From: Promethearchaeota archaeon
Lineage (GTDB): Archaea > Asgardarchaeota > Lokiarchaeia > Sigyniarchaeales > SOKP01
Assembly (NCBI GenBank): GCA_019058015.1
Contig: JAHLWH010000080.1
Coordinates: forward strand, 1 to 18,437
Reading direction: 5' to 3'
DNA length: 18,437 nt
Below, one piece after another: positions 1 to 13,319 of the stretch (its first letter is position 1; every line of letters starts with the position of its first letter). The translations under genes and the position numbers were made by a program. A model generated the notes under the pieces. The model had not been told where the DNA came from. It worked only from the letters and a program-made list of their open reading frames with translations, and did not search any database.

Positions 1-979
1 CTGCAACTTTCTCACCTTCTTCAACATCTGATCCACCAACAAAATAAACGGTTGGAGCATTTGGTTTTCGTGAAAACATAGCATCTTGGACCAATCTAGC
101 GACTCTATCAGCCGTAATGTTGCAAAAAGGAATAACAACATTAAACCCTGCATCATAGGCCATATTAATATCAAAAGGTGATGCATATTCATCAGTATCA
201 AAAAAATACAAAATACTTTCCGCCTTCACTTTTTTCTTTATCTTTATCGGGATTATTTCGAGAACAGATGTATTTACTAATTCTTTTACCGAAGAAATAT
301 CATCATGAAAATCTTTAGCAACTTTTTTGATATTTATTTGTTCAATGTCAATTCCAAGATCTTCTGCTAAAGTCGAAATGCCATCAAAATGCCTTTTGTC
401 ACAAATAAATAATGCCTTCAAGTGTTTTTTCTCCATTTTTTTTCCTAATTCAAGAATTCCCATCATCATCCAAGATTCGCGGATTTTATATCTTATCTCA
501 TCTTCCTGCTTATTATATTCTTCGCGTAAATGTTCTCTCCACATCATTAATTGTTGATAATGTGGATCATTTGGATGAACTCCGCCTTTTTCTTTTAATT
601 CCCTAATCTCCGAAGTAAATTTCTCTATAAGTTCTTTACTACCATTCAATCCCGAGGAGATATAATTTAGAGCATTCTCAGGGATGCCTATCATTTTGTA
701 GGGTATCTCATTTTTTCTGAATAAATCTACAAATTCATCCTCATAAAGCAGCTTATCATTTGACCTCATCCCTTTATCCTCTACTACAAAATCAGGATTG
801 TATTTCTTCACCAAATTTTCAGTAAATTCCATATATTCCTTAGAAACAAAAAATATATTTGCAGCAATGGCTTCTTCCCCTGTCGGCTCTTCCAACGACC
901 AATCTATTGGAAATTCACTCTCAACTAATACTAACTTAAGAGTCTTATTTTTTAAAGGTTTTAATTCTAAAGATTGCAT
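1..979 (-). CDS. mtdB: Fusion protein, copy 2 (3' end truncated by the window edge): uncharacterised N-terminal domain plus MtdB-like NAD(P)-dependent methylene-H4MPT dehydrogenase
   Basis: Absent from the ORF track because it runs off the edge. Manual translation from ATG at 979 is open to position 1: MQSLELKPLKNKTLKLVLVESEFPIDW...GGVHPND...RESWMMMGI...FICDKRHFDGI...ILYFFDTDEYASPFDINMAYDAGFNVVIP...VQDAMFSRKP. Colinear paralog of 2664..4346. SD-like AGAGGTAA at 990-997. Confidence 0.88.
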   Translation of the reverse strand, partial: MQSLELKPLKNKTLKLVLVESEFPIDWSLEEPTGEEAIAANIFFVSKEYMEFTENLVKKYNPDFVVEDKGMRSNDKLLYEDEFVDLFRKNEIPYKMIGIPENALNYISSGLNGSKELIEKFTSEIRELKEKGGVHPNDPHYQQLMMWREHLREEYNKQEDEIRYKIRESWMMMGILELGKKMEKKHLKALFICDKRHFDGISTLAEDLGIDIEQINIKKVAKDFHDDISSVKELVNTSVLEIIPIKIKKKVKAESILYFFDTDEYASPFDINMAYDAGFNVVIPFCNITADRVARLVQDAMFSRKPNAPTVYFVGGSDVEEGEKVA

Positions 980-1003
980 TTTTTAAAAATTACCTCTTAT
1001 TTT

Positions 1004-1702
1004 TTAATTAATTTGTGTCGAATGCTGTTCTATTTTTTTTAAAATTTTATTTACATTTATTACTTCAATATTTATTCCTAAATCATCTGCTAGAGATTTT
1101 ATTCCATCAAAATGTTTTTTATCACAGATAAATATTGCTTTTAAATGCTTTTTCTCAATCTTCCTTGCTAAATCAAGAATCCCCATCATCATCCAAGATT
1201 CACGGACTTCATATCTTATCTCATCTTCTTGATTAGAATATTCGCCCTGTAAATAATCCCTCCACACAACCAATTGCTGAAGATTAAAATCGTTAGGATG
1301 AAAACCACCCTTCTCTTTCAAATTCTCAATTTCTGCTCTAATCTCTTTTAGAAGTCCTACATTTCTATCAATCGTTGAAGCAAGATAACCTAAAGCATTC
1401 TCGGAAATATCAACCATTTTATATCGAATGTTATATTCTCTGAATAAATCTACTAAAGCATCATCATATTGTAAATCATCACTTGAGCGCATTCCTTTCT
1501 CTTCCACTATAAAATCTGGTTTGTGATTTTTTACTATATCTTCAATAAACTGCAAATATTTCTTAGACATAATAAATAATTTTGCAGCAATAGATTCTTC
1601 CTTTGAAGATGCTTCCAATGACCAATCTATTGGAAATTCACTCTCTACTAATAACAATTTAAGAGTCTTATTTTTTAATCTTTCTAATTCTAATACTTGC
1701 AT
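1004..1702 (-). CDS. Stand-alone A-domain protein (paralog of the N-terminal domain of the Mtd fusions; possible TraB/TIKI/ChaN-like fold)
   Basis: 232 aa aligning end to end with the first ~220 aa of 2664..4346 (ESEFPI, KPDFIVEE, GGFHPND, RESWMMMGI, FICDKKHFDGI). SD GGAGGT at 1712-1717. Confidence 0.85.
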   Translation of the reverse strand: MQVLELERLKNKTLKLLLVESEFPIDWSLEASSKEESIAAKLFIMSKKYLQFIEDIVKNHKPDFIVEEKGMRSSDDLQYDDALVDLFREYNIRYKMVDISENALGYLASTIDRNVGLLKEIRAEIENLKEKGGFHPNDFNLQQLVVWRDYLQGEYSNQEDEIRYEVRESWMMMGILDLARKIEKKHLKAIFICDKKHFDGIKSLADDLGINIEVINVNKILKKIEQHSTQIN

Positions 1703-1720
1703 TTTTTACTTACCTCCTGT

Positions 1721-2350
1721 TTAAGTTAAAATTAAAATTGAATTTTTTTTCATAATTTTGTTTGTCTCAAGATTAATAACCTTGATATTTTGAGATTCAA
1801 ATAACTTTTTCAATTCAGAAAACAATTCTTTACGGGTAAAATGAATAATACTAATCTCATCGTCATTAATCATCTTAATTATATCTAATACCTTTTTTAT
1901 GATCCATAAAGGTGTTAGCTTTAAATCTAAATGATTTTCTTTGTCTTTTACTTCACTTTTTAAGAGATGAATCCATGAGTTCAGATTTTGAGTCTTTAAT
2001 GACTCTTTCTCGGCGGGATCTGAACAGAGTTTCTCATATTCTCCTTGTAATTCCTCAATTTGTTCTTTTTTTTCTGAGATTTCATTTAATAAATAAATTT
2101 TAGCGTAGTCAGGGATATTAACATAATAATATGGTATCCCAAAATTATCAAAAAATTGTGCTAAAGGAGTCAGGTAAATCTTTTTTAAATCATCATCACT
2201 TAAATCAATCGTAGCAAAATTGAATTTTTGTTTTCTTAAGAGAACCAATAAATTTTCATGTTCTGCGTCAGATAATTCTTTATTATCCTTTTCTATTAGA
2301 TATAAAGAAATTTTTTTATCTTTTATCGGTTTTAATTCCAATACTTCCAT
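1721..2350 (-). CDS. B-type hypothetical protein, copy 2 (divergent paralog of the A domain, with a coiled-coil insert)
   Basis: Start moved to ATG at 2350 (MEVLELKP) to match paralog 4360..5019 (MEVLEIEP); GGGTA lies just upstream. Shared motifs: FATIDL, IPDYAK, KESLKTQNLNSWI. Confidence 0.8.
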   Translation of the reverse strand: MEVLELKPIKDKKISLYLIEKDNKELSDAEHENLLVLLRKQKFNFATIDLSDDDLKKIYLTPLAQFFDNFGIPYYYVNIPDYAKIYLLNEISEKKEQIEELQGEYEKLCSDPAEKESLKTQNLNSWIHLLKSEVKDKENHLDLKLTPLWIIKKVLDIIKMINDDEISIIHFTRKELFSELKKLFESQNIKVINLETNKIMKKNSILILT

Positions 2351-2457
2351 TTTTTTTACCCATTCCAAATTTTTATATATTCTGAAATTTTTTTTTACTA
2401 TTTAATTGATTTAAATGCAATAATTTAATTTATTTGATAAGAGGAATTTTAGACAAC

Positions 2458-2604
2458 TTGACTAATTAATTTATCAACTTAACCATTTTTTTTATCAAAA
2501 ATTAAAAAATCTTCTTTTTAAAACTAATTATAAAATAAATATGACAAAAAAAGTTTGATAAAATTGACAATTTAAATAATCAAGCAAACAATTTTTTTTA
2601 TCAT
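2458..2604. promoter_or_regulatory. Four copies of a putative operator palindrome TTGAYAA-N6-TTRTCAA, arranged as two tandem pairs
   Basis: 2458-2477 TTGACTA-attaat-TTATCAA; 2479-2498 TTAACCA-tttttt-TTATCAA; 2564-2583 TTGACAA-tttaaa-TAATCAA; 2585-2604 CAAACAA-tttttt-TTATCAT (weak). Starts are 21 bp apart within each pair. Confidence 0.65.
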
Positions 2605-2630
2605 TAATTAAAATATGCTTTCTATTAATT

Positions 2631-2651
2631 AAAAATAAAATAAAAAAAAAA
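2631..2651 (-). terminator. Oligo-T archaeal-type terminator candidate downstream of mtd copy 1
   Basis: A-rich run on the plus strand (A10 at 2642-2651), i.e. a T-tract on the minus strand starting 12 nt after the stop at 2664. Confidence 0.5.
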
Positions 2652-2663
2652 GTGAGTTTGAAT

Positions 2664-4346
2664 TTAGTGAGATATTACAATTTTTTTGCCAAATAATATT
2701 TCTTTTGCAATTTCAAAAGCAATGTTATAATCGAATATTTTCTTTCCTTTGGTTTTAGTAGCTTCTCTAAGAATAGAACCTTCAGTTGTCGATTTTAAAT
2801 GGCCTATTCCTAATGCCCCAATTCCAAAAATTCCGGGGTAAATTTCTTCATTATCATGTTTTGGTTTTATACCTTCAATTCCGTACGGCGGAACTAAATT
2901 AATGTCTATTACGATTTTATTTTTTGGTAATTTGCTCATCAATTCTTCTGATAAGATTTGAACTCCTGCAGCTGCTAAAGACCAGATTATATCAGCATCT
3001 TTTACTATTTCAAATTTTTTCTCATCCGTTATTGCGAATTCTCCAATGATTTCAGAAGCGTTTTTTCCTGCCTCTTTAGTTAATTCTTTTGCAAGCTGCT
3101 TTACAGCTTTTTCACTTCCCTTATCCCATGTCTCAACTAAAACTGTTTCACAATTTTGTTTTGCCGCAATTATTGCTGCAATTCGCCCGACAGGGCCAGT
3201 TCCTAATACGACCGCTTTTTTTCCTGAGATATTACTTATCCCGCTTTTCATTGCCGCTTCCAGAGTTTTCGCGACTATTGCCGAAGCCGTAGTGTGAGAT
3301 CCTCGTGGATCTATGATCACAGGGACTTCGAAAGGTGGTACTAAGGAACCCACGACTTTTTTCGCAATTTTTTCACCTTCCGCTACATTCGCCCCACCAA
3401 TGAAAAAACTGGTCGGAGCTTTTGGCTTTCGCGAGAATATCGCATCTTGCACAAGTCTTGGCACTTGTTCAACCTTTACATTACTAACGGGAATAACTAC
3501 ATCAAACCCCGCATCGTATGCCATATTAATATCAAAGGGAGACGCATGCTCATCTGTATCTAAAAAATACACAATTTTTTCTAGACTATCTTTTTTCTTT
3601 ATTTTAACGGGAGCAACTTCCATAATTGATACCTTTACAAATTCTTTTATCGTATTTGGCTTCTCTAAATCTCCAATATTTAAAATATTTTTCTTAACTT
3701 CAAATTTTTGAATTTCTACTCCTAGGTCATCTGTAAGGGTTGTAATACCATCAAAATGCCTTTTATCACAAATAAATAGACATTTTAATTTTTTCTCTTT
3801 TTGTTCTTTTGCCATATCAAGAATCCCCATCATCATCCAAGCTTCACGGATCTTATATCTTATTTCTTCCTCTTGATTTTCGTATTCCACCTGTAAATAT
3901 TCTCTCCACGTTATTAATTGCTGAAAATAATAATCATTGGGATGAAACCCTCCCTTTTCTTTAATCTTTATAATTTCTGCTTTAATTCCCTTTAAAAGTT
4001 CCACGTTTTTGTCTATTGTCGAAGCAAGATATCCAAGTGCGTTCTCATTGATATCAACCATCTTATAAGGTATTTTAAAATCTCTAAATAAATCAACAAA
4101 AGCATCATCATAATGTAATTTATCACTAGAACGCAATCCTTGTTCTTCAACTACAAAATTTGGTTTATGTTTCCGTAATATATTTTCAATAAGTTTTAGA
4201 TAATCTTTTGACATAAAACTGAAATTTAAAGATTGTTCAAGCTGCTCTTTTGTTGGCTCCAACCACCAACCAATTGGAAACTCACTTTCTATTAATATTA
4301 TTTCTAATTTTTTATTTTTTAAAGGGTTTATTTCTAACACTTGCAA
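2664..4346 (-). CDS. mtdB: Fusion protein, copy 1: uncharacterised ~220-aa A domain plus MtdB-like NAD(P)-dependent methylene-tetrahydromethanopterin dehydrogenase
   Basis: The C-terminal ~300 aa carry Mtd motifs SPFDINMAYDAGF, QDAIFSR, FFIGG, LVPPF, DPRGSHTTASA, Rossmann GTGPVG, AAAGVQ and DINLVPPYGIEG. TTG start, with SD GGAGGT (4355-4360) overlapping the upstream TAG stop. Confidence 0.9.
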   Translation of the reverse strand: MQVLEINPLKNKKLEIILIESEFPIGWWLEPTKEQLEQSLNFSFMSKDYLKLIENILRKHKPNFVVEEQGLRSSDKLHYDDAFVDLFRDFKIPYKMVDINENALGYLASTIDKNVELLKGIKAEIIKIKEKGGFHPNDYYFQQLITWREYLQVEYENQEEEIRYKIREAWMMMGILDMAKEQKEKKLKCLFICDKRHFDGITTLTDDLGVEIQKFEVKKNILNIGDLEKPNTIKEFVKVSIMEVAPVKIKKKDSLEKIVYFLDTDEHASPFDINMAYDAGFDVVIPVSNVKVEQVPRLVQDAIFSRKPKAPTSFFIGGANVAEGEKIAKKVVGSLVPPFEVPVIIDPRGSHTTASAIVAKTLEAAMKSGISNISGKKAVVLGTGPVGRIAAIIAAKQNCETVLVETWDKGSEKAVKQLAKELTKEAGKNASEIIGEFAITDEKKFEIVKDADIIWSLAAAGVQILSEELMSKLPKNKIVIDINLVPPYGIEGIKPKHDNEEIYPGIFGIGALGIGHLKSTTEGSILREATKTKGKKIFDYNIAFEIAKEILFGKKIVISH

Positions 4347-4359
4347 TTTTTTTTACCTC

Positions 4360-5019
4360 CTATTTTATGATTTGATTTGAAATTATTACTTTATTCTTAG
4401 CATCAAAAGTTCGATCTGAAACTCCAGTGCTAAAATTATTTATAATAACATTTATTTTGAGTTCTTGAAACAATTTTTGTAATTCAGGAACTAATTCTTC
4501 TGGACTAAAATGTAAAATAATTAAGGAATTTTTCTTATAAGTTCTTGCCCTGTCCAATATTTTTTTAACGATCCATTGAGGCTTAACTTTTAATTTTATA
4601 TATTGTTCTTTATCATTAACTTCCTCTTTTAATAAATCAATCCAAGATTTTAAATTTTGCCCCTTAAATGATTCTTTTCCAGAGGGATCATTGGATAAAC
4701 TTTCATATTCTGATTCTAATTCCTTAATTTGTTCTTTTTTATCGGATATTTCTCCCAATAAATAACCTTTTGCGTATTCGGGAATGTCAATACCGATAAA
4801 TTCGATTGAAAAATCTTCTAAAAATTTCGCTATGGGTGAATTATTTAATTGTTTTAAATTTTTACCCAATAAGTCAATAGTAGCAAAATCAAATGTATAA
4901 TTTTTTAAAAAGTTCTCGAAAATTTTTGCTTTTACGTGCGATATTTTATAATCTTCTTTCTCTATTATATAAAGAAAAATTTTTTTATTTTTTACCGGCT
5001 CGATTTCTAAAACTTCCAT
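4360..5019 (-). CDS. B-type hypothetical protein, copy 1
   Basis: 219 aa, colinear paralog of 1721..2350. Its stop codon overlaps the SD of the downstream mtd fusion (TAGGAGGT), suggesting translational coupling. Confidence 0.82.
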   Translation of the reverse strand: MEVLEIEPVKNKKIFLYIIEKEDYKISHVKAKIFENFLKNYTFDFATIDLLGKNLKQLNNSPIAKFLEDFSIEFIGIDIPEYAKGYLLGEISDKKEQIKELESEYESLSNDPSGKESFKGQNLKSWIDLLKEEVNDKEQYIKLKVKPQWIVKKILDRARTYKKNSLIILHFSPEELVPELQKLFQELKINVIINNFSTGVSDRTFDAKNKVIISNQIIK

Positions 5020-5107
5020 TTAGTCAAGGACCGTTTGTTTAATTATTTAATTATTTTTTATTTTTTATTTTACCCAGTAATTCACCTTAATAATAAATAA
5101 AAATAAT

Positions 5108-5180
5108 TTGATAAAAAGAGTTATCTCTATTTTAACAACTAATATTGTCAAAATATAGAATTGACAATTTCCATTATCAT
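5108..5180. promoter_or_regulatory. Three copies of the putative operator palindrome TTGAYAA-N6-TTRTCAA
   Basis: 5108-5127 TTGATAA-aaagag-TTATCTC; 5132-5151 TTAACAA-ctaata-TTGTCAA; 5161-5180 TTGACAA-tttcca-TTATCAT. Confidence 0.65.
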
Positions 5181-5394
5181 AAGTGATTTATCAACTTATC
5201 TTTATTTTAGCAAGTTATATCTAAAAAGAATTGAAATACATCTTTTTTTCTTTCATTTTTATGTGGTTTTAAAGAAAAAAATTGTCTTTTTAATAACTTG
5301 AATTTTCTTTTTTTTTTTTTAACTAATTTTATTTTCAGTTTTAAAATGAGAATAATTACATTTTGAAGATTTTTGATCAGTAAGATTTTTATTT

Positions 5395-5414
5395 TTGATA
5401 ACTTTATTTGTCAT
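5395..5414. promoter_or_regulatory. Putative operator palindrome upstream of the wHTH-hdrA gene
   Basis: TTGATAA-ctttat-TTGTCAT, ending 110 bp before the ATG at 5525. Confidence 0.6.
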
Positions 5415-5524
5415 AGTGAAAATCATAATTATTTTTTTTAATAATATTTATTTTCGGTTTTCGACAAAGAATTATAATTTTCCAGATAATGATTTGTAAA
5501 AATAATTAAAGGGAGATTAGAAAT

Positions 5525-8056
5525 ATGGATATATATTCAATTTTATCTCATCCATTTAGGAGGAAGATTTTATTACTTCTTGATAAAGAAGGTTATATCT
5601 CTTACACAGAATTGATGGATAGGTTAGGTTTAGAGACTACTGGGCAATTAAATTTTCACCTTAAAAAACTTGGGACTTTAATAAATAAAGATAAAAAATC
5701 CTATTTTCTCACGGAGGACGGAAAACGAGTTATAAATTTAATGAATATTGATAAAAAAATTTTGGCAGGTGAGGATATTGAATATTTGGATAAGGTTGGT
5801 AGTGAGATTAATCGAGTGGGGGTTATTATTTGTAAATGCAATACTGAAATTTCTAATCTTATAAGTATTAATGCACTTGAAAATTATATTAAAAGAATTC
5901 CCAATGTAGTTGCTGTGAAGATTTTTGATAATCTTTGCCAAGAGAAAAATTTAGAAAAGATTACTAAATGGTCTAAAGATAATTATTTGAATAAGATTGT
6001 TATTGCTGCGTGTTCTCCAAAAACTCATTTGCATATATTTGAAAGAATTTTTGATGGAGTTATTGATAAAGTTAATATTGAAATTGCTAATATTAGGGAG
6101 CAATGTTGCTGGGTGCATCTAAAAGAACCTACTTTAGCGTTAAAAAAAGCGCAAATTTTGATTGAGGCAGCGGTTGAACGAGTTGCGCTTCAAAAAGATG
6201 TTCAAGTAAAAACTGTTAAAATTGAAAAAAGTTGTGCCATTTTAGGTGGTGGAATTGCTGGAATGACACTTGCATTGAATTTATCAAGAGCAGGAATTAA
6301 AGTCTATTTAATTGAAAAAACTCCAACATTAGGTGGTAAAATTGCCAGGTGGAGTAAAATTTATGGAATGGGTGATTGTTCAATTTGTCTTATGTCAGAA
6401 ATGATAGGTGAGGTTGTTAAAGAAAAAAATATCGAAATTTTAACTAATACTGAAATAGAAAAAGTATCAGGTGAAGTAGGAAATTTTTCAATTGATTTGG
6501 TTAAAAAACCCCGATATGTTGATGAAAAGAAATGTACTGGATGTAAAAGATGTATTGAAATTTGCAGTATAGAAAAAAGTAATCAATATGAATTTGGATT
6601 AACAGCAAGGAAGTTAATTTATATTCCTTATGTTCAATCTTATCCATATGCTCCAGTGATTGACCAAGAAGATATTGAAACTTGCCGACAATGTAGAATT
6701 TGCGAGCGAGCTTGCAATAATAATGCGATTGATTTGGATCAGAAATTTGAAAAAATAAGGATTAGAGTTGGAACAAAAGTAATTGCAATTGGTGCGGATT
6801 TTTATTCTGAATTAAAACCTTATAACCATAATCCACAAAATGACGTAATTATATCTCCGGAATTTGAACGTATCTTATCAGCGGATGGTCCAACGGAAGG
6901 TAAAATTTTGAAATTATCTGATGGAAAACCACCGAAATCAATCTCAATAATTCAAGGTTTAGGTCCATTTGATTATTTAGCGGAATATTGTGGTACTCTC
7001 GCCATAAAGTATTTAGAATCTATTTATTCACAACTTCCTGATTGTAAAATTAACATATTTTTTGATTTAAATAAAATTAAGAAATCTACTGGATTTATGT
7101 TAGATCCATCTGATGAAAGATTTCATTATTATGAAAATATTGAAATCATAGAGAAAGGAAATAAGAAAATAATAATTTCTGATTCAGAGCAGTATCCCTC
7201 CGATATGATCGTGTTAAATGTCAATTTTGTTCCAAATAAAGATTTAAAAGAACTTCGAAAGACTTTAGATTTTACATTAGACGATCATGGTTTTATGAGT
7301 GAGGAAACGCTGGCATCCGGTATTTTTGGTGTTGGTTCAATTAAAGGTCCATTAGATTATAATTCAGTGATCTCATCTTCCAATGATGTAGCTATTAAAA
7401 TTATTTCATTGTTATCAAATGATTATTTAATTACAGAATTTAGCGGTATCGAAATCAAAGAAGAGAATTGCGGATTGTGTGGTTTATGCATATTATCTTG
7501 TCCTTACAATGCAATCACAATTGAGGCAGATAAAATTGCGATTGATAAATTCAAATGTAAAGGATGCGGAACGTGTGTAAGTGTTTGTCCCACAAATGCA
7601 CTTGACTTAAACATTGATACTACTGAGAAGATACTAAAATCAATTGAGGTATTTTCTAAATTCAATTTACGACCAAAAATAATTGCATTCTGCTGTCGTT
7701 CTTGTGGATATGGTGCAGCCGATGAAGCTGGCTTAAAGAAACTTTCCTATAATCCCAACATCTTTATTATTAAAGTTCCATGCACAGGGCGGGTAGATAC
7801 GAGTTTAATTTTTAAATCTTTCGAATTAGGATTTGATGGAGTAATGATTATTGGTTGCAGAAAAGATTCCTGCCGATATATAAATAGTGTAGATCAAGTA
7901 AGACAAAAAGTTAAACTTTTAAAAGAAGTTTTAGGTCCTATTGCTGAAAATCGAATAATTCGTAAATCATTAAGCGCAGTTGAGGGCAATAAATTTGCAG
8001 AGATTGTAAATTCTTTTTATGAAAGATTATCAGAGGAGATTAAAAATGAAACCTAA
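5525..8056 (+). CDS. hdrA: Winged-HTH / HdrA / MvhD triple fusion protein
   Basis: aa 1-75 form an ArsR-like archaeal wHTH (LSHPFRRKILLLL...SYTELM...TGQLNFHLKKL...YFLTEDG). HdrA motifs: RVGVIICKC, AACSP, NIREQCCWVH, GGGIAG, EKTPTLGG, DCSIC, KKPRYVD, four ferredoxin-type CxxCxxCxxxC motifs, EFER. C-terminal MvhD motifs: FCCRSCGYGAAD, VPCTGRVD, GCRKDSCRY. SD GGGAG at 5511. Confidence 0.92.
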   Translation: MDIYSILSHPFRRKILLLLDKEGYISYTELMDRLGLETTGQLNFHLKKLGTLINKDKKSYFLTEDGKRVINLMNIDKKILAGEDIEYLDKVGSEINRVGVIICKCNTEISNLISINALENYIKRIPNVVAVKIFDNLCQEKNLEKITKWSKDNYLNKIVIAACSPKTHLHIFERIFDGVIDKVNIEIANIREQCCWVHLKEPTLALKKAQILIEAAVERVALQKDVQVKTVKIEKSCAILGGGIAGMTLALNLSRAGIKVYLIEKTPTLGGKIARWSKIYGMGDCSICLMSEMIGEVVKEKNIEILTNTEIEKVSGEVGNFSIDLVKKPRYVDEKKCTGCKRCIEICSIEKSNQYEFGLTARKLIYIPYVQSYPYAPVIDQEDIETCRQCRICERACNNNAIDLDQKFEKIRIRVGTKVIAIGADFYSELKPYNHNPQNDVIISPEFERILSADGPTEGKILKLSDGKPPKSISIIQGLGPFDYLAEYCGTLAIKYLESIYSQLPDCKINIFFDLNKIKKSTGFMLDPSDERFHYYENIEIIEKGNKKIIISDSEQYPSDMIVLNVNFVPNKDLKELRKTLDFTLDDHGFMSEETLASGIFGVGSIKGPLDYNSVISSSNDVAIKIISLLSNDYLITEFSGIEIKEENCGLCGLCILSCPYNAITIEADKIAIDKFKCKGCGTCVSVCPTNALDLNIDTTEKILKSIEVFSKFNLRPKIIAFCCRSCGYGAADEAGLKKLSYNPNIFIIKVPCTGRVDTSLIFKSFELGFDGVMIIGCRKDSCRYINSVDQVRQKVKLLKEVLGPIAENRIIRKSLSAVEGNKFAEIVNSFYERLSEEIKNET

Positions 8057-8807
8057 TTTCTTAATCGAATCATTGACTTCTTGTAGTGGTTGTATCTCAA
8101 CAATGATTTCATTAGATATTTTTCCTCAATTTCTTGATAAGGTAAATCTCGTTCGTTGTTCATTTATGAGAGATGAAAATAATATCTCTGAAAATGATAT
8201 CGCTTTAATTGAGGGATGTGTTTCAGAGGAAAAACAAATCGATATTCTTAAAAATATTCGGAGTAAATCCAAGAGAGTAATTGCTTTAGGAACTTGTGCT
8301 GCTTTTGGTGGAATGCTTGCACTTTCCACTGTAAAAGAAGCAGAACCCATATCCAATTATATAGAAGTAGATGGAATAATTCCTGGATGTCCACCACCTT
8401 CTAAATTATTAGGCAATTGTATTATTAGACTGCTAGAAAATAAAGAGATTATTTTGCCTGAAAAAAATGTTTGTGCAGATTGCGAATTTAGAACTGATAA
8501 TATTGAAAGCAAATTTATGAAACGAATTAATAAACTAATGCCTAGAGAGTATAACTTAGATATCGAAAATAAAGATAAACGTTGCTTTTTAGAAAGAGGA
8601 ATTTTATGTTTGGGACCAATAACTAGAGATGGTTGTGAATCTAAGTGCATTAAATTGAACCTTCCTTGTGATGGGTGCATGGGACCAATTAAAAACGATT
8701 TTACCTCTAATGCCATTAATTTTTTGAGCACTGTAAATCTTGCCAAAGGTCTAAGGAAATATAAAGGAATTTTCTATCGTTATTCAAAACCAAAAACCAA
8801 GAGGTAA
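8046..8807 (+). CDS. mvhG: Group 3 [NiFe]-hydrogenase small subunit (MvhG-like)
   Basis: Motifs SCSGC, IEGCV, ALGTCAAFGG, IPGCPP, VCADC, CFL..GILCLGPITRDGC..KC....PCDGCMGP. Start moved to ATG 8046 (SD GAGGAG at 8033-8038), overlapping the hdrA stop. Confidence 0.9.
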   Translation: MKPNFLIESLTSCSGCISTMISLDIFPQFLDKVNLVRCSFMRDENNISENDIALIEGCVSEEKQIDILKNIRSKSKRVIALGTCAAFGGMLALSTVKEAEPISNYIEVDGIIPGCPPPSKLLGNCIIRLLENKEIILPEKNVCADCEFRTDNIESKFMKRINKLMPREYNLDIENKDKRCFLERGILCLGPITRDGCESKCIKLNLPCDGCMGPIKNDFTSNAINFLSTVNLAKGLRKYKGIFYRYSKPKTKR

Positions 8808-8813
8808 AAAATT

Positions 8814-10118
8814 ATGAAGAAAGTAGTTGATGTATGCACCCGGGTTGAAGGACATGGAAATATAAAAATTTTACTTCAGAAAGATGAAATTACAAGTGTG
8901 AATTTTGATCTTGAGATATTTCGAGCGTTTGAAAATTTATTACTTGATAAGAGGTTGATTGATGTTCCTAGAATTGCATCAAGAATATGTGGATTGTGTC
9001 ACGCATCACAGACAATAACTAGTTGTAAAGCAATAGAGAGTATGTATGAAGTCGAACCCTCCAATCAATCAGTTCTTTTGAGACGACTATTAATGATTGG
9101 TGAGTTGATAAAATCTCATTCTATGCATTTCTTTTTTCAAGCATTTCCCGACCTTTTTGTAATTTTGGATAAACAACCAAAACCACTCTCACTGAATGAA
9201 TTAATCCATTTTGATCCTAAATTAACTTCAAATATGTATGAATTAATAAAAATCGGCAATGAAATTGTGAATTTATTTGGTGGAAGATCTGTTCATTTAA
9301 TAACACCCATTATCGGTGGTGTTTTTTTTTCTCTATCCAAAAAAGAAATAAATATTGCACGGAAATATCTGCAAAATTCTATAAATAATTTAAAATGGAT
9401 TATTGAGCGATTCCAAGAGATATTTTCTCAATTTGATCCTCCTGATGTTTATTCCTTACCAAATCCTGCTTATATGGGAATGCATAATGATGAGAAATAT
9501 GACCGGTATAATGGACTCTTACGATTAGCACAAAATAATAAAATTATCGCAGATTTTCCCGTATATAAACATTCGCAATATTTTGATAAGCAGGAGGATA
9601 TACGTGGAATTGATTTCTATTTAAAAAACGACCAAAACATTCTTGTTGGCCCACTCGCACGATATAAAATAATTAATGATTATGGAATAGATGAACTGCA
9701 ATCCTATATTGGACTTTTTAATAAAGAATGGCAAAATAGTATTTTATTCTCAAACGTTATCAGGCTAATAGAAATGATGTTTGTTTCTTACGAAGGGTTA
9801 TCAATTCTAGACGATACTGAATTGACACAAAAAAATGAAATTAATCCTATTAATTTTTTAAGAAATAATGAAGGACTCGGCATGGTTGAAGCACCTCGAG
9901 GAACTCTCATACACTATTATCATGTAAATAAAAAGAGATTAATTGATAAAGTGAAGCTTTTTATTGCAACTGAAATTAATTTGCCAATTATTGATGAAAT
10001 CCTAACAACACAAAGCCAAAAATTGTATGAAAGAACTGGTGATTTTAATCAGATAAAAAAACAAGCGCAAATGATTATAAGATCGTTTGACCCCTGTATC
10101 TCTTGCGCAACTCATTAA
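8814..10118 (+). CDS. mvhA: Group 3 [NiFe]-hydrogenase large subunit (MvhA-like) with sensory-type features
   Basis: Motifs TRVEGHG, L1 RICGLCHASQ, SHSMHFFF, GGRSVH, VGPLAR, EAPRGTLIH, and L2 RSFDPCISCATH followed directly by the stop. SD GAGGT overlaps the mvhG stop. Confidence 0.92.
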   Translation: MKKVVDVCTRVEGHGNIKILLQKDEITSVNFDLEIFRAFENLLLDKRLIDVPRIASRICGLCHASQTITSCKAIESMYEVEPSNQSVLLRRLLMIGELIKSHSMHFFFQAFPDLFVILDKQPKPLSLNELIHFDPKLTSNMYELIKIGNEIVNLFGGRSVHLITPIIGGVFFSLSKKEINIARKYLQNSINNLKWIIERFQEIFSQFDPPDVYSLPNPAYMGMHNDEKYDRYNGLLRLAQNNKIIADFPVYKHSQYFDKQEDIRGIDFYLKNDQNILVGPLARYKIINDYGIDELQSYIGLFNKEWQNSILFSNVIRLIEMMFVSYEGLSILDDTELTQKNEINPINFLRNNEGLGMVEAPRGTLIHYYHVNKKRLIDKVKLFIATEINLPIIDEILTTQSQKLYERTGDFNQIKKQAQMIIRSFDPCISCATH

Positions 10119-10289: not shown

Positions 10290-10997
10290 ATGGTTGGATT
10301 AAAAACTAAAATTTCTAAAGAAAAATTAAGACTTCTTATCATATTTATTCTGTTATCTGCTTCACTTTTTTTACAATATTATTTTCAATTTATTCTAAAA
10401 ATAAGCATTATTTTTTCCCATTTCTTTTATATCCCTATTATTTTTGCATGTCTTTGGTGGAAAAACAAAGGCTTGGTTGTACCAATCTTTCTCTCTGGAT
10501 TACTCATTTTCTTTCCCATTTTAAGTGGATTGGATATGTTTTTTAATAATCTTATTGAAAATATTTTTCGAGCTGTCTTAATTTTATTTATTGGTATTGT
10601 AGTTGTCATTTTAAGCAAGCAAATCTTAAAGGCAGAAAATAAATTAAAAGAACGAGTTAAGGAACTTAATTGTTTATATAATATTATTGAATTGATTAAA
10701 AATCCAAACATATCAATTGAAGAAATTCTATTAGAAACTCAAAAGCAAATTCAAAATGCCTGGAAATTTCCGGATATGATATGTTCAAAAATAGTTTTTG
10801 ATAAAAAAGAATATTTAACAGACAACTATAAAAAAACCCCTTGGAAATTAACAGTTAAAAATTTAATAAAGGATAAGGAATTAAGTATTTCTGTACATTA
10901 TCTCAAGGAAAAACCCTTCCTTGAAGAAGAAAAGAATTTATTAGAGAAAATTGCTGAACAGTTAAAAGCTATTTTTGAATTTAAGTTATTAATGTAA
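10290..10997 (+). CDS. Membrane sensor-like protein: ~4 TM helices, a coiled coil and a GAF-like domain, with no output domain
   Basis: Hydrophobic N-terminal half with SHFFYIPII..C.WW. KERVKELNCLY...AWKFPDMICSKI...PFLEEEKNLL resembles a module recalled from PAS/histidine-kinase proteins. SD GAGGT at 10279-10283. Confidence 0.65.
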   Translation: MVGLKTKISKEKLRLLIIFILLSASLFLQYYFQFILKISIIFSHFFYIPIIFACLWWKNKGLVVPIFLSGLLIFFPILSGLDMFFNNLIENIFRAVLILFIGIVVVILSKQILKAENKLKERVKELNCLYNIIELIKNPNISIEEILLETQKQIQNAWKFPDMICSKIVFDKKEYLTDNYKKTPWKLTVKNLIKDKELSISVHYLKEKPFLEEEKNLLEKIAEQLKAIFEFKLLM

Positions 10998-11069: not shown

Positions 11070-13319
11070 TTATTCCTCCTCTTCCTTAAATATTTCCTCT
11101 ACTTTATCGTTAGAATCTCTGAAAGGATGTAGAGCTCCTGACCAATCTAAAAGATGAGGTCTATGCTTTTCCTCAAACCATTCAACAAATTCTTTTAAAA
11201 GACTACGGTCTTCTAATGATTGTTTTCCTTTTACAAATAATGCTGAGAAAATATACTGCCCATATTCAATCAAAATTTTAATATCTCCATGGTCAATCGT
11301 CTTAAGCAATTCTGAACTCTTTGTTGTCTCTTTAATAAAAGCGGTAATGGCCGTAAACATTCCAGCAATTAAACCAGAATCCGCATAATCTACACCTTTG
11401 AAGTTGTAACTGAATATATCGCGTCCATCAGAGTAAATTACATATAATCCTTGCAGCTCGACTTTTTCATATTCATATGTGAATTCTGGAATCCAAAAAG
11501 AGATTTTTCCATTATAAAATAGATATTTTAAAGTAAAATAAAATCTCCGCATTTCTTCCTTCTCTATTGGTCTAATTTCTTTCAAAAATTTATTGTTCTT
11601 GATCTTTTCTAACAATTCTTTAACTTCTTCTCTTTCTTCAATTTTTTCTTCCTTAACTTCTGATTCAGGAGTTTTAACCACTAAATATCGATAGAGATCC
11701 GTGCGGTATGCCTCATATTTTGGAAATTCGGAAGTTCTTGAAAAAGATATCTTTTCAACTATTTTTTCTCCCTTAAGAACATTTTTAACAATAAAGATTT
11801 TATTTAAATAATATAAAATTAATCCCCAGATTAAGAGATTAAAAACATAGCGTGTATAAGTGAATGGAATCGCTATAATTTCTAATAATGGAAATTCACC
11901 TAGGTTGACTTTAAACAATACAGTCCTTATTGTGTAAATATCTTTATCAAATAATGAAAAATAAGCTGATGCACCAGTAATCCAATAATCTTCCGGAGCA
12001 AAATTGATTGGGGGGTAAAAACCTACAAACCTAATTAATATTGAGATTAAAATGACAATCCCTAGAAAGATAAAAGATGTTATGGCTATCTTTTTTATAA
12101 ATTGCATACTTCTCGCGAAAAGATATGCAAAAAGGATAACAGAAAAAATTAAAATAAATGTATTTATGATATTAAATAGATCCAATCTTAACGCATCTTC
12201 TAAAAATATAATATTTCCATAAGTAATATCAGCTTTTAATAGTAGTTCGTCAAAATATTCTTGACTTATAATTATTCCTATCTGTATTGGATTAATTAAA
12301 AATTGGTAAATAATAAGAAAAATAAGACAGCCTCCTACTCCAATAACTAAAGGAATATACCAATTTGTCCAATCTATCTTTCTTTTCTTTGTTTTTGCTT
12401 TTTTCCATAAATCAACTAACTTTATAAAAATTAAAATAGCAATAGGTTGAAAAATTTTATGGAATAAAATAAATATTCCAGCACCCATCATAAAATATGC
12501 GAAGAAATAAAGTATGAAAACGTAATTTGTAGTAGGATCCGCTAAAAATAATAAAATACTTAAAAGGGATATTGGAGTTCCTACTTGAAACAAACTTCTA
12601 AATGTATCTTCTCTCAATTTTTCTCCAATATATGCTCCTTTAAAGGAAATTTTACTACTATACACCAAGTGAATCCCAACTAATAGTGTAGCAATATATA
12701 CAAATAAAATTTCCACAAACCATCCCATAGTTGTTTCCCCAGTGGTTAAATCAATACTCTCTAAACCTAAAAGTTCGATTATGACGGATAATAAGTATAG
12801 AGATATTGGCAAAAGAACAATTAATAATTTTAAGAGTTGTTTTTCTTCCGACCAATCACCTTTTATTAGTCCCTCTTTTATCATATCAGAAGGACTTTTT
12901 TTAAATTCAAAAGTTAGATCGGCAAGTTTATCCCTCATAGCTCCCGGTTCTTTTCGTAATTTTCTCCATAATATAAGAAACGATAAAAATGGTCCCACCA
13001 GAAAGATAAATGTCAAAGTTGCAAAAGGATATTGCAAAAAATAACCAATTAGAGATATCATGTGAGAAAATATAAAAAAAAACGCTAAAAATATATTTCC
13101 TTGCTCTTCAGGATGTAATTGAAGCTCCTTAGGATCAATGTCTGTTTGAAACATAATTGGTAAAATCCAATATACTAGAAAGAAGATAACAATTCCTAAG
13201 AAGACTCTTAAATATAATTTTCCAATTAATCTTTTATAAATAAAAGGAATTGGAATTGCCAAAAAAATGATTGGTAGCCCATTTAATAACAATAAATAAA
13301 ATATTTCTATCGTTTCCAT
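11070..13319 (-). CDS. Polytopic membrane protein with a C-terminal Asgard longin-like domain
   Basis: More than 10 hydrophobic segments in the first ~510 aa. The C-terminal ~130 aa (GLYVIYSDGRDIF...DSGLIAGMFTAITAFIKE...IDHGDIKILIEYG...FVEWFEEKH...WSG) match the longin/profilin-like fold pattern common in Asgard proteins. Confidence 0.75.
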   Translation of the reverse strand: METIEIFYLLLLNGLPIIFLAIPIPFIYKRLIGKLYLRVFLGIVIFFLVYWILPIMFQTDIDPKELQLHPEEQGNIFLAFFFIFSHMISLIGYFLQYPFATLTFIFLVGPFLSFLILWRKLRKEPGAMRDKLADLTFEFKKSPSDMIKEGLIKGDWSEEKQLLKLLIVLLPISLYLLSVIIELLGLESIDLTTGETTMGWFVEILFVYIATLLVGIHLVYSSKISFKGAYIGEKLREDTFRSLFQVGTPISLLSILLFLADPTTNYVFILYFFAYFMMGAGIFILFHKIFQPIAILIFIKLVDLWKKAKTKKRKIDWTNWYIPLVIGVGGCLIFLIIYQFLINPIQIGIIISQEYFDELLLKADITYGNIIFLEDALRLDLFNIINTFILIFSVILFAYLFARSMQFIKKIAITSFIFLGIVILISILIRFVGFYPPINFAPEDYWITGASAYFSLFDKDIYTIRTVLFKVNLGEFPLLEIIAIPFTYTRYVFNLLIWGLILYYLNKIFIVKNVLKGEKIVEKISFSRTSEFPKYEAYRTDLYRYLVVKTPESEVKEEKIEEREEVKELLEKIKNNKFLKEIRPIEKEEMRRFYFTLKYLFYNGKISFWIPEFTYEYEKVELQGLYVIYSDGRDIFSYNFKGVDYADSGLIAGMFTAITAFIKETTKSSELLKTIDHGDIKILIEYGQYIFSALFVKGKQSLEDRSLLKEFVEWFEEKHRPHLLDWSGALHPFRDSNDKVEEIFKEEEE

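Follow-up and report, generated by a model that had tools for sequence, protein, structure and literature searches.

Results

A wHTH domain fused to HdrA-MvhD

We analysed an 18,437-nt stretch of DNA, hereafter the window, which is one contig (JAHLWH010000080.1) of the metagenome-assembled genome (MAG) of an Asgard archaeon, Promethearchaeota archaeon (GCA_019058015.1; 3.84 Mb, 94% complete, 29% G+C). Its plus strand carries three tightly packed genes, of which the first encodes an ArsR-like winged helix-turn-helix (wHTH) domain joined to HdrA and MvhD in a single polypeptide, and the other two, mvhG and mvhA, encode the subunits of a [NiFe] hydrogenase. On the minus strand, two paralogous operons with mtdA-like genes are divergent from this HTH-hdrA operon (Table 1). 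The reading that we favour as the most economical, with a confidence that amounts to an even chance, is that of a trigger enzyme comparable to PutA, i.e. an active flavoprotein-hydrogenase complex which carries its own transcription factor and autoregulates itself together with its one-carbon (C1) partner genes.

A fusion of this kind had been proposed from the letters of the DNA in a first, sequence-only reading, and both the Pfam matches and the alignments to solved structures bear it out. Residues 2-71 of the first protein match the wHTH family PF24038 (DUF7347; E 1.2e-11; 45.2 bits against a cut-off of 27.6), the further Pfam matches being to HTH_24/HTH_20, to Rossmann families that bind flavin adenine dinucleotide (FAD) or NAD, and to 4Fe-4S families. 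Among solved structures, HdrA 8rvu_a aligns with residues 94-709 (E 5.9e-118), and MvhD 5odc_D with residues 716-835 (E 2e-25). The best NCBIfam model, HdrA2 (NF040770), covers residues 97-837 (E 2.9e-177) with 591 bits, under its cut-off of 1100 bits, and the NCBIfam HdrA models score 388-436 bits, short of their cut-offs of 1300-1400. Methanosarcina HdrA2, which works with HdrB2C2, has the same HdrA-MvhD fusion order, but it possesses neither a wHTH domain nor an adjacent hydrogenase.

The architecture search suggested by the sequence-only reading found the combination of HTH, HdrA and MvhD to be common across Asgard genomes. When proteins of 463-1476 aa were searched, 158 protein clusters matched residues 1-110; among the 120 matches listed, nearly all were 839-862 aa long, combined DUF7347, HdrA and FlpD, and were 66-96% identical at the N-terminus. 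The source labels of the fusion clusters were Loki-, Hel-, Hod-, Thor-, Odin- and Hermodarchaeota. With a 130-aa query (residues 1-129), the HTH-HdrA junction was recovered, in frames of ~850 aa, from 121 of 400 genomes of the phylum, from 30 of the 90 high-quality ones, and from 90 of the 134 genomes of the window's own family plus seven other families, at identities down to 39%. The fusion matched 128 genome records, from which 80 loci (1.18 Mb), drawn from GTDB species genomes, were kept, and all of them match the fusion end to end or break at a contig end. The clusters, the 80 loci and the 121 genomes rule out an assembly chimera or a singleton: the wHTH-HdrA fusion is real, old and widespread in Asgard archaea. 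One contig filed under an actinobacterial MAG (Nanopelagicaceae bacterium; L071) holds the Asgard locus with its full gene order, probably through a binning error.

A conserved palindrome at the promoters

The unit repeated in front of the operons is TTGAYAA-N6-TTRTCAA, 20 bp long and 2-fold symmetric. At two mismatches or fewer it has nine matches in the window against 1.63 expected, a number reached by none of 200 shuffles, and seven of the nine fall into two intergenic regions (at 2458, 2479 and 2564; at 5108, 5132, 5161 and 5395). The sequence-only reading had counted about eight copies upstream of the HTH-hdrA operon and of both mtd-like operons; the locations hold for all three operons, whereas the count at this stringency comes down to seven. 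Enrichment in the window is confined to the degenerate half-site and the spaced palindrome; the single half-site TTGACAA occurs four times there against 4.43 expected. Across the genome, 19 matches were found at one mismatch or fewer, 5 of them within ~0.8 kb of the locus, the other 14 being scattered single palindromes, half of them within open reading frames (ORFs). Clusters of at least four half-sites number three in the genome, two of which are at this locus, and the one at 5108-5180 is the only cluster with at least two copies of TTGACAA. The third (C121), inside a 321-aa ORF, was taken as chance.

The same elements recur in related genomes. Of 43 orthologous divergent promoter regions, 41 contain TTGACAA, where shuffles would lead one to expect 4.9, and 40 contain TTTGACAA, for which 2.7 are expected. 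Chance palindromes in AT-rich DNA are ruled out by the window shuffles, by the genome-wide scan and by the shuffles of these 43 regions. When 18 of the divergent regions are aligned, two TATA boxes and the half-sites stand out from a background of low conservation, and the half-sites and palindromes hold fixed positions relative to the two boxes. Towards o219, a half-site is found 2-5 nt from the TATA box and transcription factor B recognition element (BRE), with a full palindrome after it; towards hdrA, the TATA box is followed, near the presumed start of transcription, by two half-sites ~21 nt apart.

The 80 loci contain 123 palindromes at one mismatch or fewer, distributed as follows: 61 within 500 nt upstream of HTH-hdrA, 25 at -1250 to -1750, 11 near -5100 and 5 downstream. 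The group around -1500 comes from loci with a co-directional FrhB-like gene ahead of HTH-hdrA, and since the palindromes there stand in front of the FrhB-like gene that heads the operon, they follow the promoter of the operon. In the same way, mtd-like operons that are separated from HTH-hdrA by other genes retain palindromes of their own (L021, L023, L027, L066 and L093), and in a distant, GC-richer family the palindrome is found with one mismatch at -58 in two of three loci. Together these data support the palindrome as a conserved, locus-specific putative operator of the HTH-hdrA and mtd-like operons.

Some features of these neighbourhoods were recorded in passing. In L021 (6735-7898, plus strand) and the other loci of the second gene order, the protein encoded directly before HTH-hdrA is FrhB/FdhB-like with a 2x[4Fe-4S] domain, and an HdrA paralogue of the selenocysteine type is divergent there. 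The group near -5100 (11 loci) lies before a small ORF of 86 aa that adjoins a gene for a CDC48-type AAA ATPase. In L078 (2507-2912), the cluster of half-sites and palindromes before this ORF resembles that of the o219 promoter, and a gene for Ftr (formylmethanofuran:tetrahydromethanopterin formyltransferase) follows 1.1 kb further on.

The wHTH domain as a probable DNA-binding dimer

A profile of residues 1-95, built from 25 sequences and compared with the PDB, gave the archaeal ArsR repressor 1y0u as its best match (E 2.4e-4), followed by MntR. T39, G40, L42, N43, F44, H45, L46 and K48 are invariant in the 25 sequences, and the recognition helix to which they belong is the most conserved stretch of the whole fusion protein. 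Modelled as a homodimer, residues 1-95 form a symmetric pair with an interaction prediction score from aligned errors (ipSAE) of 0.61, compared with 0.01 for the best control. Of 30 solved homodimers 20 reach this mark, and of 23 single chains one does; the result for the wHTH may reflect likeness to, or memory of, solved ArsR dimers. The runs share at least 84% of contacts, at a predicted local distance difference test (pLDDT) value of 86. In the predicted interface (residues 2-8, 13 and 68-85), which is of the ArsR type, the first and last helices meet, and the recognition helices stay unobstructed. Residues 1-95 show no ligand-binding motif like those of ArsR-type metal sensors.

These comparisons support assignment of the domain to a DNA-binding family, and in the neighbourhoods of the 80 loci no other gene for a DNA-binding protein or regulator is conserved. 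Since the putative operator is conserved, specific to the locus and moves with the promoters, the proposal that the wHTH binds the palindrome appears well supported, by strong comparative evidence.

Loss of one [4Fe-4S] site in the HdrA part

The HdrA part keeps the FAD fold with its GxGxxG motif, the Cys residues of the N-terminal cluster, the CxxC pair next to FAD (invariant in the 25 aligned orthologues) and two 2x[4Fe-4S] ferredoxin domains. In the excerpts of the articles cited by identifier in this paper, this CxxC pair includes a Cys that ligates the N-terminal cluster of the partner chain and makes HdrA an obligate dimer (PMC9012536). One site is degenerate: where 8rvu_a reads HCVGSRD...YCSRVCCMY, the fusion protein has IQGLGPFDYLAEYCGTLAIKYL (residues 474-497), in which three of the four Cys are gone and one is left, whereas all other Cys motifs of canonical HdrA are present in the alignment. 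The CSxxCC element is likewise absent from 25/25 aligned orthologues and from 79/79 loci read.

From the alignment and by elimination, we take the lost cluster to be HA4. According to the excerpts, HA4, the cluster of the thioredoxin-reductase domain, passes the high-potential electron from FAD to HdrC/HdrB (PMC9012536, PMC12350162, PMC13580544), and the equivalent cluster E4 connects FAD to BamD in the benzoyl-CoA reductase complex (bioRxiv 10.64898/2026.04.10.717634). No CCG/HdrB domain was found on the window's contig and no hdrBC in the operon, while 37 CCG matches exist elsewhere in the genome. The claim of a degenerate Fe-S motif without hdrBC in the operon is thus confirmed on both counts. 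An operon without hdrBC agrees with the lost site, and the known kind of heterodisulfide reductase can be excluded for the fusion protein.

At least 10 HdrA-like genes are present in the window's genome. Four of these paralogues contain 2-4 in-frame TGA codons, probably for selenocysteine, and have an MvhD-like ORF beside them (C143:5006-6895, C237:11000-12916, C125:22426-24318 and C134:2321-4186).

The MvhG/MvhA hydrogenase

The hydrogenase genes follow closely upon hdrA. The hdrA stop codon is at 8054-8056 and is overlapped by mvhG, whose likely start is the ATG at 8046 behind GAGGAG (the listed ORF opens at 8019); the mvhG stop is at 8805-8807, and six bases later, behind AAGAGGT, comes the mvhA ATG at 8814. 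A homologue of mvhG is present in 76 of the 80 loci.

Two features set this MvhA apart from the solved methanogen enzyme (5odc_F). Its L2 motif reads RICGLCHASQ (8982-9011), compared with RICGICQVAH, so that Gln66 replaces the canonical His, and the protein ends with DPCISCATH (10089-10115; H434), whereas 5odc_F runs 25 residues past DPCLSCATH. In related loci the L2 motif ends in Gln in 70 of 72 cases, the two exceptions with His being both from Jordarchaeia, and 66 of 70 complete C-termini stop exactly at the His of DPCxxCxxH, the others being 5, 7, 7 and 11 residues longer. Because of these proportions, the Gln and the missing extension are family traits and not accidents. 

The catalytic core is intact at the Ni-binding Cys, the L1 Glu (RVEGHG) and the Arg of APRG, and the RICGLC and DPCISC pairs are in place. 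Of the features of group 3c hydrogenases, MvhA has the L1 motif RxEGH, the two CxxC pairs and the kinship to MvhA; the L2 His and the cleavable extension are missing. The NCBIfam VhuA model gives 174 bits against a cut-off of 800. The best solved relatives belong to group 3 (MvhA and the NAD-reducing, sulfhydrogenase and F420-reducing enzymes), followed by periplasmic and membrane-bound [NiFe(Se)] hydrogenases; no sensor hydrogenase is among the 60 PDB matches listed, group 2b being without a solved structure in the set compared. None of the ORFs of the window that were scanned with Pfam encodes a kinase.

In one complete chromosome (L059), the enzyme linked to HTH-HdrA is the only [NiFe] large subunit found, and no [FeFe] hydrogenase was detected there. 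Four other genomes, as well as that of the window, hold one further [NiFe] enzyme. In the latter it is of the Vhu type with a canonical L2 His and adjoining HdrBC-like genes (C28, L018:970-3597, minus strand). Its VhuA-like large subunit (435 aa) ends before DPCxxCxxH, as if VhuU were separate, its small subunit is extended (435 aa), and genes for an HdrC-like and an HdrB-like protein adjoin.

More distant families date these traits. In families f19 and f31 (L115 and L116), MvhA has the L2 His and HdrA the four-Cys site, L115 having an extension of 10 residues as well, and in Jordarchaeia the four-Cys site is lost, while the L2 His and an extension of seven residues are kept. Since families with HTH-HdrA still keep the His, the extension and the four-Cys site, the wHTH fusion is older than the three traits that look sensor-like.

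It was on such traits that the sequence-only reading had built a one-component H2 sensor. In a dedicated sensor of this kind, a slow MvhGA module would reduce MvhD, the HdrA clusters and FAD without a metabolic outlet, and the redox state would switch the wHTH. We consider this unlikely. A Gln at the position of the L2 His, as in 70/72 loci, is a feature of the H2 sensors HoxC and HupV; a literature search for this Gln gave nothing usable. The missing extension (66/70) is a property of known H2 sensors (PMC7294309, PMC8159394), but equally of the energy-converting groups 4c, 4e and 4g (PMC7294309). Neither feature is therefore proof of a sensor, "sensory" is an interpretation, and of the earlier description the coupling of the two genes, the Gln and the missing extension stand, but not the label. 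The loss of the HdrBC-facing cluster in every close orthologue, along with the lack of hdrBC in the operon, agrees with a sensor, whereas the retention of the ferredoxin-side clusters and of all catalytic residues, and the kinship to MvhA and other group 3 enzymes, do not. Similarly, the second, canonical-His hydrogenase beside HdrBC-like genes could do the metabolic work in the window's own genome, but in L059 there is no other hydrogenase to do so, and cultured MK-D1 makes H2 with a single "MvhADG-HdrABC" enzyme (PMC7015854) that may or may not be of the fusion type. A wHTH joined to an Mtd-like protein in L114 (see below) also speaks against a sensor. That the fusion predates the three traits weakens the pure-sensor idea, but their rise inside an already HTH-fused clade is what specialisation would bring about, and this keeps the idea alive.

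Link to mtdA-like genes

The 560-aa product of the first divergent operon matches solved MtdA over the full length of the latter (residues 256-554; 6tlk, E 1.8e-34; 1lu9, E 6.3e-34), preceded by an extra domain of 255 aa (the N-domain) which is not in MtdA itself. The N-domain-MtdA-like gene is present in 47 of the 80 loci and a homologue of o219 in 52. The o219 product is a distant paralogue of the N-domain, with no match in Pfam or NCBIfam and with unnamed Asgard clusters as its only Atlas matches. An AlphaFold model of the N-domain (pLDDT 77.5) gave nothing at E <= 0.001 when compared with the PDB by Foldseek, the best match having E 9.5e-3 and TM 0.23. The nearest named Atlas cluster of the N-domain/o219 family is TraB/GumN at 0.83, a lead only. 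The N-domain and the MtdA-like part form one protein in the window (2664-4346) and in Jordarchaeia; in many other loci they are encoded by two genes (243 aa and 337 aa; e.g. L078:5238-7036), and the window has both forms.

Family by family, the distributions of HTH-HdrA and the N-domain agree (in the own family, 90 and 96 of the 134 genomes); of the 30 families listed, 20 have neither, and three families are discordant. In nine genomes of families f19 and f31, N-domain-mtdA is co-directional with HTH-hdrA and directly behind mvhA, at a distance of 4.72-4.78 kb from the HTH-hdrA start. Because the genes are divergent in one set of families and co-directional in f19 and f31, the link between the Mtd-like protein and HdrA-Mvh survives a change of gene order. 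The HTH-hdrA locus and MtdA-family genes are genuinely linked, and the link holds in two gene orders. In L116 (991-7526), where the operon reads HTH-hdrA-mvhD, mvhG, mvhA, N-domain-mtdA by ORFs and Pfam, an ORF for a histidine-kinase-type ATPase lies just upstream.

In one genome (G362; L114:4501-6477, plus strand), a 658-aa protein has the DUF7347 wHTH (residues 3-71) fused to N-domain-MtdA instead (Mpt_N at 364-443 by Pfam), and three TTGTCA half-sites ~20 nt apart precede the gene. Genes for EtfB and a ferredoxin-domain EtfA are found upstream. An ORF of the same locus, L114:3649-4263, was tried as an o219 homologue and showed no similarity (E 30).

These associations can also be read structurally: the wHTH would be an adaptor that docks HdrA to the o219 and N-domain-MtdA proteins or to Mvh, in a redox complex linking H2 or ferredoxin to C1 conversion (methenyl/methylene-tetrahydromethanopterin (H4MPT), NADP), and a separate factor would bind the palindromes. 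In its favour are the Rosetta-stone pattern, in which most genomes join the wHTH to HdrA and L114 joins it to N-domain-MtdA, the mtd-like gene within the same operon in two families, and the almost identical distributions. The coupling of Hdr modules to C1 enzymes also has a precedent, MetFV-HdrABC-MvhD (PMC9012536). A wHTH also occurs inside the HdrA/MvhD-type electron-bifurcating machine of class II benzoyl-CoA reductase, where that of BamF serves as a protein-protein interface (bioRxiv 10.64898/2026.04.10.717634); unlike here, it is carried by an MvhD-like subunit and not by the N-terminus of HdrA, it contacts BamI, and no operator is known for it. Against an adaptor speak a recognition helix that is the most conserved part of the protein, DNA-binding repressors as the closest solved relatives of the domain, a predicted ArsR-type dimer with free recognition helices, a 2-fold symmetric putative operator that accompanies the wHTH gene through three gene orders, and the lack of any other conserved regulator gene at the locus. 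We therefore rate the adaptor as rather improbable.

Features of the window are compiled in Table 1. Beside the operon lie a 235-aa ORF with several hydrophobic stretches (10290-10997, plus strand; no Pfam or NCBIfam match) and a 749-aa ORF (11070-13319, minus strand; no Pfam match), neither of which is conserved next to the operon (10 and 2 of the 80 loci, respectively).

Table 1. Features of the HTH-hdrA locus and the divergent operons (window coordinates)
Feature	Position	Strand	Evidence or remark
wHTH-HdrA-MvhD fusion, 843 aa (P0001)	5525..8056	+	Pfam, PDB alignments, orthologues of ~849 aa
ArsR-like wHTH, DUF7347, residues 2-71	5528..5737	+	Pfam, PDB profile match
Recognition helix TGQLNFHLKKL	5639-5671	+	Invariant residues in 25 sequences
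Conserved helix/linker, residues 72-95	5738..5809	+	Part of predicted dimer interface
Degenerate thioredoxin-reductase-domain [4Fe-4S] site, residues 474-497	6944..7015	+	Alignment to 8rvu_a
MvhD/FlpD [2Fe-2S] domain, residues 719-836	7679..8032	+	Pfam FlpD, E 6e-35
MvhG-like small subunit	8046..8807	+	Pfam Oxidored_q6, E 1.1e-20; NCBIfam VhuG, E 2.6e-38, below cut-off
MvhA-like [NiFe] large subunit, 434 aa	8814..10118	+	PDB 5odc_F, E 5.4e-50
Three adjacent palindromes (5108-5127, 5132-5151, 5161-5180)	5108..5180		Just upstream of TATA-like stretch, divergent o219 promoter
Palindrome TTGATAACTTTATTTGTCAT	5395..5414		Abuts TATA-like TTTTATTTT; 111-130 nt before HTH-hdrA start
Three palindromes (2458-2477, 2479-2498, 2564-2583)	2458..2583		Upstream of second mtd-like operon
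o219, first gene of divergent operon	4360..5019	-	Asgard-specific; no Pfam or NCBIfam match
N-domain + MtdA-like NADP-type methylene-H4MPT dehydrogenase, 560 aa	2664..4346	-	Mpt_N, E 6.2e-26
Second paralogous operon	2..2368	-	o215, o232, N-domain + MtdA-like
o215	1721-2368	-	Second paralogous operon
Free N-domain, o232	1004-1702	-	Second paralogous operon
Second N-domain + MtdA-like	2-979	-	Cut by window end

Discussion

The locus combines, in one chain, an enzyme with a DNA-binding domain, and comparative genomics places putative operators in its own promoter, which is what a trigger enzyme calls for. PutA, the bacterial example, is a flavoenzyme whose N-terminal ribbon-helix-helix represses its own divergent promoter; the redox state of its FAD is the switch, and the protein is membrane-bound when reduced. 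Here too a flavoenzyme and an N-terminal DNA-binding domain share one polypeptide, but the domain is an ArsR-like wHTH on HdrA-MvhD with an attached [NiFe] hydrogenase, the promoters are of the archaeal TATA/BRE type, and switching is proposed only.

To judge from its sequence, the set of HdrA (FAD, Fe-S)-MvhD, MvhG and MvhA would suffice for an active oxidoreductase of the H2/ferredoxin type. As a trigger enzyme, the HdrA-MvhDGA complex would couple H2 with ferredoxin, with some other second partner, or none, in place of HdrBC, and would work with the Mtd-like proteins. HdrA would dimerise, so that two N-terminal wHTHs could pair on TTGAYAA-N6-TTRTCAA. In front of the HTH-hdrA-mvhGA operon, the putative operators come after the TATA box and before the expected start of transcription, where a repressor might sit, and they also abut the TATA/BRE of the divergent o219/N-domain-MtdA operon or operons. 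With operators at both sets of promoters, the complex would set its own level and that of the genes for the NADP-type methylene-H4MPT dehydrogenase.

The most speculative step is that reduction by H2 or ferredoxin would change the spacing of the two wHTHs and thereby release or strengthen DNA binding, as in PutA. In published structures, the N-terminal domain of HdrA is part of a mobile arm that rotates between catalytic states (PMC12350162, PMC13580544), and since the wHTH is tethered to this moving domain, a redox coupling of DNA binding is plausible; control by redox state or by H2 is nevertheless pure inference. In its full form, H2 oxidised at the Gln-type [NiFe] site would reduce MvhG, MvhD and the HdrA flavin, the swing of the arm would move the wHTHs on or off their operators, and H2 pressure would be read into transcription of Wood-Ljungdahl C1 genes without a kinase, a second messenger or a separate regulator. 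We think this whole chain improbable. An alternative is that the wHTH binds the operators without any redox or H2 control, the fusion merely tying the dose of a repressor to that of the enzyme. Such plain autoregulation would draw on the same operator evidence as the trigger enzyme, and it agrees with the two fusion contexts of the wHTH (HdrA and Mtd-like) and with the absence from residues 1-95 of any ArsR-type metal-ligand motif. Yet the fused repressors studied so far, PutA, BirA and NadR, respond to the state of their enzyme. Together with the movement, during catalysis, of the HdrA domain that holds the wHTH (PMC12350162, PMC13580544), this makes plain autoregulation quite doubtful.

Several observations weigh against a trigger enzyme. 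The related loci are kin, so their counts overstate independence. Within the own family, 44 of 134 genomes, some of them 96-99% complete, are without the fusion, which is therefore dispensable. TTGACAA is missing from 2 of the 43 close promoter regions, and at two mismatches or fewer 8 of 14 distant loci have no palindrome in front of HTH-hdrA (f31, 0/5; f4, 0/3), one locus of the family with 0/5 nevertheless showing a GACAA-N6-TTGTC core. Another, unlinked factor could bind the palindrome, and the wHTH of BamF offers a precedent for a role in protein contacts. The change of His to Gln, the lost extension and the lost Fe-S site could mean that catalysis has been given up. Finally, because L114 fuses the wHTH to an Mtd-like protein, the domain does not need HdrA, and redox control through HdrA is thus not required.

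Of the H2-sensing regulator advanced in the sequence-only reading, the fusion, the DNA-binding family, the dimer model, the operator and the Mtd link have all gained support. Its dedicated-sensor part has fared badly, as the hydrogenase signatures are not diagnostic, the catalytic residues are intact, the enzyme is the sole hydrogenase of L059, and the fusion predates the traits. An enzyme that also regulates is more likely than a dedicated sensor.

Compared with known systems, the complex shares with methanogen MvhADG-HdrABC (5odc, 8rvu and 9sw2) homologues of HdrA, MvhD, MvhG and MvhA and the retained N-terminal cluster Cys, CxxC pair and ferredoxin domains; it differs in having no HdrBC in the operon, in the loss of the cluster that leads to HdrBC, in the fusion of MvhD to HdrA, in the added wHTH, and in an MvhA with Gln for the L2 His and no C-terminal extension. 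With the group 2b sensors HoxBC/HupUV it has in common a large subunit without extension and with Gln in place of the L2 His and, as proposed here, a hydrogenase tied to transcription. Those sensors, however, pass their signal to a histidine kinase and a response regulator (HoxJ/HoxA); the complex described here has the DNA-binding domain built in, and its sequence relatives are in group 3. In full-text searches of PMC and bioRxiv, we found no description of the HTH-HdrA fusion or of the operator, and no mention of DUF7347. The complex would belong to a known kind, that of trigger enzymes or one-component regulators; as far as searched, there is no precedent for its composition, a [NiFe] hydrogenase with a bifurcation-type flavoprotein that bears an ArsR-like wHTH.

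H2 metabolism and syntrophy are central to models of the origin of eukaryotes from Asgard archaea. In the excerpts available, the Asgard "MvhADG-HdrABC" genes are usually read as a standard bifurcating hydrogenase (PMC7015854, PMC11291895, bioRxiv 10.1101/2025.02.26.640444). The widespread version described here has a wHTH added, the HdrBC route lost, the surround of the active site altered, and a genetic tie to an NADP-type methylene-H4MPT dehydrogenase with two domains that lack a known fold. Reconstructions which equate this cluster with the methanogen Mvh-Hdr are probably wrong on the electron acceptor. To our knowledge, almost nothing is known of transcription regulation in the Asgard phylum, and residues 1-95 of the protein and the 20-bp palindrome make up a testable pair of regulator and operator. 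The complex may be the first module of the hydrogenase/flavin-bifurcation type to be wired directly to DNA.

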